A stretch of DNA of 64,000 nt. It comes from Novosphingobium sp. Lineage in GTDB: Bacteria; Pseudomonadota; Alphaproteobacteria; Sphingomonadales; Sphingomonadaceae. Location: the NCBI GenBank assembly GCA_039917735.1, contig JBDSIY010000102.1, positions 3,888 to 67,887 on the forward strand. Direction: 5' to 3'. Both the position numbers and the translations under genes were made by a program. Shown here piece by piece: positions 8,279 through 44,426 of the stretch (position 1 is its first letter; every line of letters begins with the position of its first letter). Below the pieces are notes generated by a model. That model did not search any database and had not been told where the DNA came from. It saw only the letters and a program-made list of their open reading frames with translations.

Positions 8279-9006
8279 TTTTCGGCCTCGGCCACCGCCA
8301 TCGCCTCGGCCAGATCGAGCCGGCCGTCGTACAGCGCCCGCCCCGTGATCACGCCTTCGATGCCTTGGTCCGCGTGCCCTGCCAGTTCGCGGATGTCGTC
8401 GATGCCGGCGACGCCGCCGCTGGCGATCACCGGCAGCGTGGTCTCTCGGGCGAGTCCGACGGTGGCGGCGACGTTGCAGCCCTTGAGCAGCCCGTCGCGG
8501 CCGATGTCGGTAAACAGCAGCGCGGCGACGCCAGCGTCCTCGAAGCGGCGCGCCATCTCGGCCACCAGAACGTCGGAGACCTCGGCCCAACCCGCCGTCG
8601 CGACCCGGCCGTCGCGCGCGTCCACCGCGACGACGATACGCCCCGCCCAAGCCGTCGCCATCTCACGAACGAAGCCCGGATCGGTCAGCGCTGCCGTTCC
8701 GATGACGATCCGGGCGACGCCGAGCGCGAACCAGCCCTCGACCGCCGCCGGGGTGCGGATGCCGCCGCCGAGCTGGACCTGGCCGGGGAAGACCGCGAGG
8801 ATTCCCTCGACCGCTTCGCGGTTGCGCGCCGCGCCGGCGAACGCCCCGTCGAGATCGACGACATGGAGGAACCGCGCCCCCGCCTTGGCGAAGGCCTTGG
8901 CCTGCGCGGCGGGATCGTCGCCGTAGATGGTCGCCCGGTCCATGTCGCCCTCGGCAAGGCGGACGACCTGGCCCTGCTTGAGGTCGATGGCGGGAAAGAC
9001 GATCAT
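8275..9006 (-). CDS. hisA: ProFAR isomerase HisA
   Basis: [17 protein letters not shown]; [10 protein letters not shown]; QLGGGIRT; TDIGRDG; VITGRALY. Confidence 0.97.
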
Positions 9007-9099
9007 CCGATGCGCCTAATTCGCCGAGGCACCCATTGCAAACGCCGCGTCTCAACGGGCGCACGGAGACAGAGCGATGCTGGCAAGCGCGAGAGGCGT

Positions 9100-11499
9100 T
9101 TACTGCCGCGCTCGAAGGGTCACTCCGATCGTGCGCGGGTCACTTGGCGTGGCGAGGATGAGGCCAGAGTTGCCGGCCTGGATGGTGACGTTCTGGATAT
9201 AATCCCGACCGAACAGGTTTCGGGCGAACACGGCGATCTCCCAGCCCTTGGCATTGCGAAACCCGACGCTGCCGTTGACGACAGTGTAGCCGCCGATCGT
9301 CGTGAAGCGCGAGCCGGTGGGGTCACCGAGCTGCCGGCTGCGATAGTTGGCGTCGGCGTGCGCGAAGAGGCTTCCCCCGAGCGCTCCCAAAGGGCGGAGA
9401 TAGTCTCCGCCTACCGTCCATGACCATCTCGGCAGGCCCGGAAGACCCACGCCGCTCAAGTCGCAGGCCGCCGCCGAATTGCCGATCCGCTCGATCGGGC
9501 ACGGCCCGGCGGGATAGCGGTCGTACTTGCCGTCGGCATAGGCAACCGACGCTCGCAGCGATAAGTCGCCCTTGACCGCCGCAACGGCGTCGGCCTCGAA
9601 CCCCTTCACCGTCACCTTGGGGATGTTGGCGAGGTAGGTGCGCAACGCGGCCGCCGCGCGGGTGTCGCTGACGTTGGTCTGGAAGTCCGTCACGCGAGTG
9701 TAGAAGGCGTCGATGTTGAAGGTCAGGCGGTTGCCGAACAGGCGGGTCTTCAAGCCCACCTCGTAGGCCGTGTTCTTCTCGGGCCGCACCGTTGCGGTCC
9801 CGATCGCCGGCAGGTTCTGATCGTTGAGCGGCAGTCCGGACATGTTGATGCCGCCAGACTTCTCGCCGCGCGCATAGCTCGCATAGCCGAGCACGTAGTC
9901 GGTCACTGCCCATGCGATATTGGCGCGGCCGGTGAGCGCGCCGTCGTTGACCCTCGCGGCGTAGGTCTGGCCGCGCAGGATCGACAGCCTGGCGTTGATG
10001 AGCGCGGCGTTGGCGATTGGCGGACCGCCGGACACGAACGTGTCATAGGTGCCGGTCTTGTGCTCGTAAGTATAACGAAGGCCGCCGGTCAGCGTGACCC
10101 GCTCGACCGGGCGCCAGTTGACCTCACCGAACGCGGCATAGCTGTTCGACTGGAAATCGGTGCGGCCATCGGTGCCATAGCCGTCCAGCAGATTGGCTGG
10201 GACCGGAGTGGCATTCACGCCGGTGGTCGCGCCGATCAAATAGCGGGACGCCGCTGGACCGTAGATCGAGATCGGCCGCCCCCCCACGCGCTGACGGACG
10301 AAATACAGCCCTCCGACATAGCTGATCGCCCGCTCGCCGTTGGAGGCGATGCGCAGCTCCTGGCTATACTGATCCTGCCGTGACGGGATGTGCTGCTCGA
10401 TCTGGATGGGGATGCCGGTATAGTCGCGGTCGTTGGCGGCGTCCCAGTTCCAGAAGCGCCACGCACTGACCGAGGTCAGCACCGCCGCGCCGATGTCCCA
10501 ATCGGCAATCGCGGCGACACCGCCTTCGTTGGTGTCCACGCCCAGCGGCGCATCGATATCGGTCACGCGGTCATAGGGATTGGTGCTGGGCGGCGTGTAG
10601 TTGAACTGAGCGGCAAGGCCGGTCGGTCCGCCAAACTGGCGGGTGGCGGTGCGCGGCACGTCTCGAGTGGCGACACGGTAGAAGACCTGGGTGCAGCAGT
10701 TGCTCTGGAAGTTGGTGAAATCGGCGCTCAGCTTGAGCTGAAACACCTCGGACGGCTTGAACAGCAATTGCCCGCGCACCGCCTGGTTGCCGATCTGGTT
10801 GTGATCCTGTCCCGTGCGGACATTGTCGATCACACCGTCTCGGCGCGTAGAAACGCCCGATAGGCGAAAAGCGATGGTCTCGCTGATCGGGCCGGAGGCG
10901 GCAGCCTTGGCCTGGACGAAGTGGAAGCTCCCGAGCGATATTTCCTCGGTGGCTTCCGGCGTGGCGGTTGGCGCCCGCGTCGTGATGTTGATCGCACCGG
11001 CCGTACTGTTCTTGCCGAACAACGTGCCCTGCGGACCGCGCAACACCTCCACCTGGGCAATGTCGCTGAAGTCGAACGCGGCGGTCGCCGGGCGGGCATG
11101 ATAGACCTGATCGACGTAGTAGCCGACGCCTGGCTCCAGCCCGTCATTTGCCTGGCTGACCGCAACGACGCTGCTGCCGAGCCCTCGAATCGTGAAGGCG
11201 GTGTTTCGCGGATTGGCCGAACTGTAGTTGAGCGCGGGCACCAACTGTGACAGTTGCTGCGTGTTGACCGTGTAGGAACGGTCGAGCCGCTCGCCGCCAA
11301 CCACGGACAGCGAGCCGGGGATGCGCTGTGCATCCTCAGGGCGGCGGCGCGCCGTGACGGTGATCTGCGGCACGCCCACTCGATCGTCGGCGTCGTTCGT
11401 GGCCGCCGCATCGCCTACTTCCCGTGCATCAGCGCCCGCCGGCCCCGGACACAGACATAACATCACGCCCAACACGAGCGATCCCCGAAAATCGTGCAC
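9100..11499 (-). CDS. TonB-dependent receptor (799 aa)
   Basis: Signal peptide, ITVTARRR TonB-box region, plug VEVLRGPQGTLFGKNSTAGAINI, beta-barrel C-terminus. Confidence 0.93.
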   Translation of the reverse strand: MHDFRGSLVLGVMLCLCPGPAGADAREVGDAAATNDADDRVGVPQITVTARRRPEDAQRIPGSLSVVGGERLDRSYTVNTQQLSQLVPALNYSSANPRNTAFTIRGLGSSVVAVSQANDGLEPGVGYYVDQVYHARPATAAFDFSDIAQVEVLRGPQGTLFGKNSTAGAINITTRAPTATPEATEEISLGSFHFVQAKAAASGPISETIAFRLSGVSTRRDGVIDNVRTGQDHNQIGNQAVRGQLLFKPSEVFQLKLSADFTNFQSNCCTQVFYRVATRDVPRTATRQFGGPTGLAAQFNYTPPSTNPYDRVTDIDAPLGVDTNEGGVAAIADWDIGAAVLTSVSAWRFWNWDAANDRDYTGIPIQIEQHIPSRQDQYSQELRIASNGERAISYVGGLYFVRQRVGGRPISIYGPAASRYLIGATTGVNATPVPANLLDGYGTDGRTDFQSNSYAAFGEVNWRPVERVTLTGGLRYTYEHKTGTYDTFVSGGPPIANAALINARLSILRGQTYAARVNDGALTGRANIAWAVTDYVLGYASYARGEKSGGINMSGLPLNDQNLPAIGTATVRPEKNTAYEVGLKTRLFGNRLTFNIDAFYTRVTDFQTNVSDTRAAAALRTYLANIPKVTVKGFEADAVAAVKGDLSLRASVAYADGKYDRYPAGPCPIERIGNSAAACDLSGVGLPGLPRWSWTVGGDYLRPLGALGGSLFAHADANYRSRQLGDPTGSRFTTIGGYTVVNGSVGFRNAKGWEIAVFARNLFGRDYIQNVTIQAGNSGLILATPSDPRTIGVTLRARQ

Positions 11500-11536
11500 G
11501 CTTCGCCCCCTCGTTCACCGAACGCAGCCGGCGATT

Positions 11537-11560
11537 CACTATATTCGGACATATATAGCG
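11537..11560. promoter_or_regulatory. ModE-box-like operator upstream of the TonB-dependent receptor
   Basis: CACTATATT-CGGACA-TATATAGCG matches the ModE consensus CGTTATATA-N6-TATATAACG at 6/9 and 8/9; it lies between modE and the receptor start. Confidence 0.75.
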
Positions 11561-11601
11561 AAAGGTGCTGGAACGAAGCGGCATATTCTGGCGTGGCCGT
11601 G

Positions 11602-11988
11602 TCAGGCGGAAAGGTCGGCCTTCGCGGGTAGGGGCTCCTCGCGGATCAAACCCATCAGCCGCTGATAGGAGACGCTGTTGGCAATGGTCGCGGATTGTGC
11701 CTCCAGGTTTCTGAAGGCGGCGAGTGCGGCATGCCCGGTGTCCGTCAGATGGGCCCCCCGGTCGCGACTTCCTCCGGCGATCGTATCGACCAGTCGATCG
11801 TGGAAACACCGGTTCATCTCGTCCACCAGCAGCCAGATGCGGCGGTAGCTCATGCCCAGTGCCCTGCCTGCGGCAGAGATCGAGCCTTCGCGCTCGATCG
11901 CGGCGAGCACATCCGCCTTGCCGGGACCGATTGCGTAGGTGTCACCGCAGACAAGTTGCAGCTTCAGCTTCAGTGCACCGACACGCAC
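11602..11988 (-). CDS. modE: ModE-family regulator, winged-helix domain only (no Mop domains)
   Basis: IGPGKADVLAAIEREGSISAAGRALGMSYRRIWLLVDEMN; 128 aa. Confidence 0.88.
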   Translation of the reverse strand: MRVGALKLKLQLVCGDTYAIGPGKADVLAAIEREGSISAAGRALGMSYRRIWLLVDEMNRCFHDRLVDTIAGGSRDRGAHLTDTGHAALAAFRNLEAQSATIANSVSYQRLMGLIREEPLPAKADLSA

Positions 11989-11989
11989 C

Positions 11990-12196
11990 TCACTTCCCGA
12001 TCAGAACGTCGCTGGCTTTGACAAGGACGGTGACTTGATCGCCCTCGCTGAGGCCCAAATCGGCGATCGCCTCCTCGGTGATGTTGGCGGTGACGACGAT
12101 GCCGTTGCCGATATCCACTTTGACCGAGCCATTCACGGCGCCGCGATGGATGCTGGCCACACGGCCTGAGATCTGGTTGCGGGCGCTGATCTTCAT
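11990..12196 (-). CDS. Stand-alone Mop/molbindin (TOBE) molybdate/tungstate-binding protein
   Basis: MKISARNQISG...TANIT..AI.DLGL..G..V.VLVKASDV; the stop is 1 nt before the modE start. Confidence 0.92.
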   Translation of the reverse strand: MKISARNQISGRVASIHRGAVNGSVKVDIGNGIVVTANITEEAIADLGLSEGDQVTVLVKASDVLIGK

Positions 12197-12349
12197 AGCG
12201 TGTCCTCAGGGTACGAGAGTACGGCGAGACCGCCGGATAACACCTTTGAGTTCCGACGGCGAGCTGCCCCCGTCCGTTTAGGGTGACTACACCCGCCACT
12301 CCACAAACTCTGCCCGCAGTGCCAGCCCGTAAGCCTCACTTCCCGCCGA

Positions 12350-13123
12350 TCAGAACGGATCGCGGAATGGCCCGGCGATGTGGCCGCCATCCACCACCAG
12401 CGACGCACCGGTGCAAAACGAACTTTCATCCGACGCGAAGAACAGCACGGCGTTGGCGATCTCCTCGGGCCGGCCCATGCGGGCAATCGGCTGACGAGCC
12501 ACGGCTTTTTGCAGCCGTTCCATTGATTTGCCGGTGTTCTTGGCAACCATCGGCGTCTCGATGATGCCGGGATGGACGCTGTTGACGCGGATGTTGCGTG
12601 GGCCGAGCTCGAGGGCAAGCGAGCGGGTCATCCCGGTGACGGCGAACTTGCTGGCAACATAGGTGCTGAGCCCTTCGACGCCGACGAGCCCGTCGATCGA
12701 CGAGATGTTGATGATCGATCCGCCGCCGCGCGCGTCCATCGCCTTGAGGGCGCTGCGGACTCCAGCCCAGACGCCGGTGACGTTGATATCGAGAACGCGG
12801 CGATGGCCTTCGATCGTCTCGCGTTCGATCCCGCCGCCGATGCCCGCGCCGGCGTTGTTGACGAGAACGTCGAGGCCGCCGTTGCGGCCGCGGACCTCGG
12901 CGATGGTCCGGTCCCACTGCGCAAGGTCGGTGACGTCGAGGTCGAGAAAGCTGGCGGATGGACCGATGTCTTGGGCGACCGCCAGCCCGGCGTCGTGCCT
13001 GACATCGCTGACGATCACCGTAGCACCGTGTGCGGCGAAGCTGCGGGCGCAAGCCTCGCCGATGCCGCTCCCGGCGCCGGTGACCAGGGCGATCTTGCCG
13101 GCAAGTCGGGCGGCCATGGTCAT
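12350..13123 (-). CDS. SDR family oxidoreductase (3-alpha/20-beta-HSD-like)
   Basis: TGAGSGIG, NNAG, YVASK, NSVHPG; ATGA-coupled to the upstream SDR. Confidence 0.92.
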   Translation of the reverse strand: MTMAARLAGKIALVTGAGSGIGEACARSFAAHGATVIVSDVRHDAGLAVAQDIGPSASFLDLDVTDLAQWDRTIAEVRGRNGGLDVLVNNAGAGIGGGIERETIEGHRRVLDINVTGVWAGVRSALKAMDARGGGSIINISSIDGLVGVEGLSTYVASKFAVTGMTRSLALELGPRNIRVNSVHPGIIETPMVAKNTGKSMERLQKAVARQPIARMGRPEEIANAVLFFASDESSFCTGASLVVDGGHIAGPFRDPF

Positions 13124-13923: not shown

Positions 13924-14211
13924 CTGCCTGCTCCGGTATCTTCAAGACTATGTTGTGTAATATGCTTTTCAAGCAGACAGGCGTTCAAGCATGAGGCGCT
14001 GTTTATCTACAAGGCCCAAATATCGTTGCCAATTATTATGGCGCAAAACTGCATGGTTGATAAGCTTTCCGGGCAGATTCGGAATGAATCCATATTTGCG
14101 CATCTCACAATATGTAATTACGGAAGTCTATATAAAATCACTTGAGCCTTGAACAGATCGACCTTTCGGCACTATCCCAACGGCATAAGCACACGTGAGA
14201 GGATGACAATC

Positions 14212-44144: not shown

Positions 44145-44426
44145 GCTCTCGGGAGGCCAAGTCGCTCACGCGGTACAGGGATCGAGCGACGCAGCGTTGA
44201 TAAGCTGCACGCCTGTCGGCGCGGTTAATGGCCGCGCCGACGAGACGCATGGCCGGCCGTGTCTTCAGGGGCAATCGCAGCGCTCATGGGTTGTGCCGGC
44301 TAGCGAAGCAGATCACTTCGCCCGATTGAAGGCACGATATGCCGCAGCCGGACCGCGTCGGATTAACAAATCTATATGTTTACCGCTATATAATGAGGAA
44401 AAGTAAGGGTCGGAGGGTCGGGGCGC

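Follow-up and report, generated by a model that had tools for sequence, protein, structure and literature searches.

A short ModE, a stand-alone Mop protein and a conserved ModE-type operator beside a TonB-dependent receptor gene in Novosphingobium: a predicted molybdenum-regulated module

We analyzed a locus at positions 9100-12196 of a 64,000-nt stretch of DNA from Novosphingobium sp. (hereafter the window, in whose positions all coordinates are given), in which the gene for a TonB-dependent outer-membrane receptor (TBDR) is preceded by a palindrome resembling the operator of the regulator ModE. The locus begins with mop (11990-12196), which encodes a 68-aa stand-alone molbindin with a single Mop/TOBE domain (TOBE PF03459 and TIGR00638), followed by modE(S) (11602-11988), which encodes a 128-aa protein consisting of a winged-helix DNA-binding/dimerisation domain only (HTH_1, TIGR00637, PDB 2IJL). 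Next come a predicted 24-bp palindromic operator, the Mo-box (11537-11560; CGCTATATATGTCCGAATATAGTG on the minus strand), recognized with a position weight matrix (PWM) derived from orthologue promoters, and the gene for the 799-aa TBDR (9100-11499; Plug and TonB_dep_Rec_b-barrel domains). All three genes are on the minus strand, and open reading frames and domain assignments agree with the arrangement described in an earlier, sequence-only reading of this DNA, i.e., mop, a modE lacking Mop domains 1 nt away, the palindrome and the TBDR gene in one orientation. Inspection of the reading frames and the sequence placed the GTG start of modE(S) 1 nt past the mop stop, a spacing from which translational coupling of the two genes is likely. 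The 102-nt gap between modE(S) and the TBDR gene contains the minus-strand palindrome CGCTATATA-TGTCCG-AATATAGTG (11560-11537; plus-strand reading CACTATATT-N6-TATATAGCG, 11537-11560), located 37 nt upstream of the GTG start of the TBDR gene. The latter is monocistronic in appearance, with hisA beginning 93 nt after it; as unrelated short-chain dehydrogenase/reductase (SDR) genes precede mop and hisA follows the TBDR gene, the module comprises three genes. A search of Rfam at the gathering threshold matched only a tRNA at 1106-1176, with neither a molybdenum cofactor (Moco) riboswitch nor any other RNA found in the leader.

The protein encoded by modE(S), termed ModE(S) here, matched HTH_1 above the cut-off (29.7 bits, 6.3e-7) and scored 64.6 bits (6.4e-18) against TIGR00637, which is below the curated cut-off of 98.5; as Pfam gave no TOBE match in its 128 aa, it is not a full-length ModE. 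The top PDB match was a 135-aa Agrobacterium protein (2IJL; 2e-15, residues 18-98), which ranked ahead of E. coli ModE (residues 17-89, 1.5e-5). 2IJL is the Agrobacterium tumefaciens ModE(S) Atu2564, annotated as a molybdenum-binding transcriptional repressor. The window protein has the attributes of this class, i.e., a length of ~120-135 aa, a DNA-binding domain only and homology to Atu2564; control of molybdate uptake genes through palindromic Mo-boxes, a further attribute of the class, is found in silico as predicted boxes. The split ModE proposed in the sequence-only reading is real in that a short ModE without Mop domains is present, but it is not new, as genes for ModE proteins with a DNA-binding domain only were already noted in 2004 (PMC545781) and Agrobacterium 2IJL is such a protein.

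Mop matched TOBE PF03459 (1.5e-16) as well as TIGR00638 (71.6 bits, above the cut-off of 55) and represents the only TOBE domain in the assembly. Its best PDB matches were ModG (1H9J, 2.4e-21) and the Mop hexamers 9BEM and 1GUG, and alignments to ModG and Mop revealed that the SARN and KAS molybdate-binding motifs are kept. An SsuF-type identity and a role in organosulfur metabolism, also considered in the sequence-only reading, received no support: no ssu genes were found, Mop passes TIGR00638 and matches molbindins, a luciferase-like enzyme encoded nearby reached 34 bits as compared to the SsuD cut-off of 518, and the receptor of relatives is linked to modABC.

The TBDR showed a signal peptide, followed by a PQITVTARR segment of typical appearance, and matches to the Plug (4.7e-16) and barrel (4.1e-43) domains, the barrel being of the 22-strand type; no NCBIfam equivalog reached its cut-off for this protein. 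A structural model built with AlphaFold2 (AF2) from 38 orthologues (predicted TM-score 0.75) has a confident barrel and a low-confidence plug. The solved folds closest to this model were those of FyuA (TM-score 0.84, normalised to the target), Fiu, the enantio-pyochelin receptor FetA, PqqU and PiuA, at 13-19% identity. CC/Cys-pair motifs were considered as a molybdenum-specific signature of the receptor and rejected, as a 38%-identical paralogue without a box has the same motifs.

Compared to the E. coli-type consensus CGNTATATA-N6-TATATANCG, the Mo-box agrees at 14 of the 16 specified positions, and it is the sole site with at least 14/16 matches in the whole 2.8-Mb assembly (66.6% GC). No match to the palindrome was obtained in 100 shuffles, and a scan for TATATA-N8-TATATA gave 3 matches as compared to 0.02 expected. 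A chance origin of the palindrome is excluded. When its own genome was scanned with the PWM, the Mo-box scored 33.6 bits and the runner-up 17.6 bits, with nine sites in all exceeding 10 bits. The runner-up (CTATATGTTTACCGCTATATAATG, 44372-44395) is a direct rather than an inverted repeat and was deemed unrelated; a 2OG-Fe(II) oxygenase gene, itself followed by CobS, begins 32 nt downstream of it. A separate, AT-rich region of 225 nt (13924-14148), located between a divergently oriented SDR gene and the gene for a luciferase-like monooxygenase, has stretches rich in TATA, which produced a weak pattern match.

Conservation of the Mo-box was assessed with 80 receptor orthologues, at 63-89% identity, that come from Sphingomonas, Novosphingobium, Sphingobium and relatives. 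A ModE(S)-type box of at least 20 bits was present in 64 of the 80 promoters, a count that is partly circular as the PWM was trained on orthologue sites; the control on paralogues and the matches at modA reported below are independent of this training. Another 13 promoters carry a canonical E. coli-type box (CGTTATGTA-N7-TATATAACG), which brings loci with a box of either type to ~77 of 80. In a scan with the consensus, boxes were located at -30 to -130 relative to the TBDR start in most of the promoters. The sphingomonad box has the consensus CTCTATATACGG/CCGTATATAGAG, and two loci (L069 and L076) have perfect palindromes of 20-22 bp. In an alignment of 24 promoters, the only conserved islands were the box and the Shine-Dalgarno sequence. 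Conversely, none of 21 promoters of paralogue receptors (36-46% identity) contained a box, the top score among them being 6.5 bits. Several orthologue promoters (L049, L050, L059, L067, L077 and L084) carry two tandem boxes ~25 nt apart at about -40 to -90, the window having a single box; the Agrobacterium modA promoter reportedly also has two Mo-boxes.

A gene for a ModE-type regulator was found within 1.5 kb of the receptor gene in 52 of the 80 loci. In 39 of them this is a short modE, either co-directional or divergent, and in 13 a full-length ModE (HTH and two TOBE domains) is encoded directly downstream of the TBDR. The canonical box and the full-length ModE occur in the identical 13 loci and in no others; this co-variation of operator type with regulator type indicates that the box is a ModE site. 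Moreover, modCBA is divergent from the TBDR gene in L029, L044 (=G127) and L074, the box being located between the two. Orthologues of modE(S) adjoin modABC in many further genera of the family, and the PWM trained on receptor promoters matched the modE(S)-modA intergenic regions of at least 10 of these genera with 20.8-32.4 bits (G015, 32.4; G067, 32.3; G094, 28.5; G143, 28.2; G111, 27.7; G146, 25.8; further matches in G052, G040, G066 and G105). By chance, ~0.05 matches would be expected in that amount of DNA, the chance rate for such scores, as judged from the window's own genome, being <1 per 2.8 Mb. The modA promoters of 20 further TBDR-bearing genomes were mixed, showing clear boxes, weaker GTATCCG-CGGATAC palindromes, or neither within 650 nt.

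As its TATAT-rich letters resemble a -10 hexamer, and as any AT island is conspicuous in a GC-rich genome, the palindrome could also be read as a mere AT-rich promoter element or a chance match. We consider this extremely improbable, since both half-sites and their spacing are kept in 77/80 orthologues, up to the perfect palindromes of two loci, and since the box is absent from the 21 paralogue promoters, present at modA promoters and switches type with the regulator; these comparative data effectively refute such a reading. The operator, its tie to ModE-type regulators and its tie to modABC can be regarded as demonstrated in silico, and the palindrome is very probably a conserved ModE-type operator governing the TBDR gene. 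The ModE box controlling a TBDR that the sequence-only reading had postulated is borne out, at the in silico level, by conservation, regulator co-variation and linkage to modABC, and the conservation and synteny across sphingomonads that it had suggested as a check were found.

To place the receptor in relation to known molybdate transport genes, we surveyed an even sample of 151 Sphingomonadaceae genomes, in which ModA was found in 92, a short ModE in 54, MoeA in 137 and a receptor orthologue in 8, with a clear identity gap between orthologues (at least 63%) and paralogues (at most 46%). Outside the family, an even sample of 400 genomes of the class yielded no receptor orthologue. The receptor co-occurs with ModA in 7 of 7 genomes of the sample and in 47-48 of 50 genomes of the fetched set, and is therefore normally an addition to ModABC rather than a replacement. 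As the sequence-only reading had stated, the window contains no modABC; ModA and ModB were not found in the whole assembly either, ModA being searched for with TIGR01256 and both proteins by tblastn with the ModA and ModB of a relative. ModB-like tblastn matches on contig C74 were rejected as Pst phosphate permeases. The sole source of these matches is a complete phoB-pstBACS-phoR phosphate uptake cluster (G000, C74:55601-62235). The assembly is 96% complete and consists of 112 contigs, so that the missing modABC could reflect an assembly gap. MoeA is encoded in this genome, however, and another genome of this genus, which is 100% complete, has kept MoeA and lacks ModA, as do ~45 of the 151 family genomes; a true absence of ModABC is thus plausible here. 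A ModA-independent inner-membrane route for molybdate seems to be common in Sphingomonadaceae. The sphingomonad ModC proteins of two loci (L138:2303-2950 and L128:1980-2615) are ~211-215 aa in length and do not have the C-terminal TOBE domain of E. coli ModC.

Overall, these data suggest that the receptor probably serves in the acquisition of molybdenum (Mo) or tungsten (W) across the outer membrane, which we regard as the best explanation of the sequence evidence. The module would then be a three-gene molybdenum-homeostasis unit, in which a ModE(S) dimer would sit on the 24-bp palindrome overlapping the TBDR promoter and, under Mo sufficiency, shut the receptor gene off. Under Mo scarcity, the receptor would be made and would use TonB energy to concentrate Mo (or W) in the periplasm, either in the form of the free oxyanion or in a small complex, in most genomes presumably alongside ModABC, while Mop would act within the module as a cytoplasmic molybdate buffer or store. 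We infer the direction of control (i.e., repression), the cargo and the signal sensed; repression is preferred over activation because of the position of the box and the modABC divergons in which it is shared.

Besides the possible assembly gap and the partial circularity of the 64/80 count, several points weigh against this assignment. A scan of 8900-12500 for sigma-70 promoters and terminators called none; the modeled fold is that of a generic TBDR and, at identities of 19% or less, gives no hint of the cargo; molybdate is small enough for the porins of E. coli; and we know of no TBDR for an oxyanion. In its strongest form, in which the family consists of dedicated TonB-dependent importers of free molybdate or tungstate and the receptor is the sole ModE(S) target here, working without ModABC, the proposal is tentative, and we think it rather less probable than its negation. 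The cargo might also be a chelate of Mo or W, such as a Mo-catecholate or another metallophore complex, instead of the free oxyanion. The nearest solved folds are indeed those of siderophore and cofactor receptors (FyuA, Fiu, PiuA and PqqU), and catechol siderophores of Azotobacter bind molybdate. We nevertheless consider a chelate doubtful, as identity to the siderophore receptors is only 13-19%, as no genes for metallophore biosynthesis, periplasmic binding proteins or FecCD-type permeases are found beside the TBDR gene, either in the window or among the 80 loci, and as the linked partner, ModABC, imports free molybdate; the absence of such genes together with the ModABC linkage speaks rather for a free oxyanion or a simple complex as the cargo. 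A cargo other than Mo that is required according to Mo status, i.e., a metal for a Mo-independent isoenzyme or, should ModE(S) be an activator, a molybdoenzyme substrate, appears quite unlikely. ModE regulons do include genes other than transporter genes (moa, dms and nap in E. coli; anfA in Rhodobacter), and the direction of control is itself deduced here; yet, of all partners of the box, the receptor is the most constant; in several lineages its gene is physically linked to modABC and to mop, and no gene for catabolism or for an alternative enzyme accompanies it.

Apart from the cargo, the manner in which Mo status is sensed was considered. According to the sequence-only reading, Mop would supply the sensor domain in trans, i.e., molybdate-loaded Mop would dock onto ModE(S) so that the pair rebuilds a full ModE. 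The 1-nt spacing of mop and modE(S), which is 1-4 nt in ~17 related loci, the retention of the SARN and KAS ligand motifs and the presence of mop at the receptor locus in 23 of the 80 loci are in line with this proposal, and an interaction of R. capsulatus Mop with MopB, a ModE-like protein, has been reported (Wiethaus et al. 2009). However, no Mop was found anywhere in 46 of the 54 ModE(S)-bearing family genomes (8 have one). Even among close ModE(S) relatives, some are accompanied by mop and others are not; when adjacency of mop was mapped onto a tree of 71 short ModE proteins, a minimum of 8 gains or losses was required, 5 of them forced by well-supported branches. Conversely, mop adjoins the TBDR gene without modE(S) in G112/L127, L055 and L072. 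The 2016 study of Hoffmann et al., to our knowledge the only one to have examined a short ModE experimentally, is reported to have found that the activity of Agrobacterium ModE(S) depends on Moco biosynthesis genes rather than on molybdate and that the co-transcribed upstream gene is dispensable. Sensing in trans by Mop appears unlikely in light of these observations, and by analogy to Agrobacterium ModE(S) the signal would most likely be Moco status rather than Mop-bound molybdate. Our favoured interpretation is that Mop buffers or stores molybdate in the cytoplasm and is inherited together with the scavenging receptor. Either way, the locus offers a natural system for asking how a ModE without a sensor domain reads Mo status, with and without a Mop partner.

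The module shares features with several known systems. With E. coli ModE and modABCD (consensus ATCGNTATATA-N6-TATATANCGAT; PMC545781), it has in common a winged-helix N-terminal domain and a palindromic, TATAT-containing operator near the start of a Mo-uptake gene, in addition to the 14/16 agreement in the operator and the proposed repression by Mo sufficiency. Unlike E. coli ModE, the sphingomonad regulator has no di-Mop molybdate-sensing domain, its predicted target is a TBDR rather than an ABC transporter, and its box follows the consensus CTCTATATACGG/CCGTATATAGAG. The likeness to Agrobacterium ModE(S) Atu2564 extends to a length of 120-135 aa, a DNA-binding domain only and, as reported for Agrobacterium, co-transcription with an upstream gene and binding to Mo-boxes; the target in Agrobacterium, however, is reportedly modABC as compared to a TBDR without modABC here, and the upstream gene here encodes a Mop molbindin. 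The window Mop shares the ~68-aa Mop domain and the SARN and KAS motifs with the molbindins of C. pasteurianum (Mop, 1GUG), S. ovata (Mop, 1FR3) and A. vinelandii (ModG, 1H9J), but its gene is tied to those of a regulator and an outer-membrane receptor rather than to operons for nitrogenase or mod genes. TBDRs regulated by a metal have been described for Zn, Cu, Ni and lanthanides. As in ZnuD (Zur), OprC/NosA (copper), FrpB4 (NikR, nickel) and the lanthanide receptors, the operator of a metal-sensing repressor would lie on the promoter of a TBDR for a scarce metal; the cargo here would differ in being an oxyanion metal (Mo or W), and no close sequence relation to those receptors was found, OprC ranking 41st in the fold search.

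Uptake of Mo by Gram-negative bacteria has been described as diffusion through porins followed by transport by ModABC. Full-text searching of the literature found no description of a Mo-regulated TBDR, in agreement with the sequence-only reading, which knew of no characterised example; the Mo-regulated TBDR is the new element here, the short ModE and the stand-alone Mop being already known. For the crossing of the outer membrane by molybdate, a recent paper names only ModABC and a type VI secretion system (T6SS) route involving ModA and IcmP. This H2-T6SS ModA-IcmP route of P. aeruginosa is the other proposal of assisted molybdate crossing of the outer membrane, and differs in that it uses secreted ModA and the IcmP protein and no TonB-dependent receptor (cited in PMC11734730). 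A receptor family wired to a Mo regulator in ~77/80 genomes, with an operator that changes type with the regulator and a receptor that sometimes forms a divergon with modABC, argues for an active outer-membrane step in bacteria of soil and plant surfaces. In such habitats, molybdate is nanomolar and often mineral-bound. If the strongest form of the proposal were true, the receptor would be the first TBDR for an oxyanion, and a second inner-membrane molybdate transporter would be implied, which would also serve the approximately one third of Sphingomonadaceae that make Moco without ModA. The question is relevant to Mo-dependent processes such as nitrate assimilation and nitrogen fixation, and the locus represents a concrete and easily tested candidate, as it is carried by culturable strains, i.e., Sphingomonas echinoides ATCC 14820, the Leaf21, Leaf22, Leaf208 and Leaf230 strains and Novosphingobium sp. 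AP12.

A further gene was observed beside the receptor gene in other genomes, the genome of the window not having it. It encodes a conserved secreted protein of ~150-175 aa with no Pfam match (L008:3237-3764, minus strand; L052:7378-7890; L064:7387-7881; L025:7175-7597; also L005, L007, L010, L011 and L065), characterized by a C-P that is invariant near the N-terminus and by the motif H-x-H-G-P-x-C-x3-RK-x-VDF. Among the closest relatives, this gene is divergent from the Mo-box receptor gene, with the box common to both, and in L052 and L064 it adjoins the gene for a second TBDR of 692 aa with a box-like site of its own. The AF2 model of the protein (pLDDT 74) has a predicted beta-sandwich fold similar to the PPC and collagen-binding domains of collagenases.

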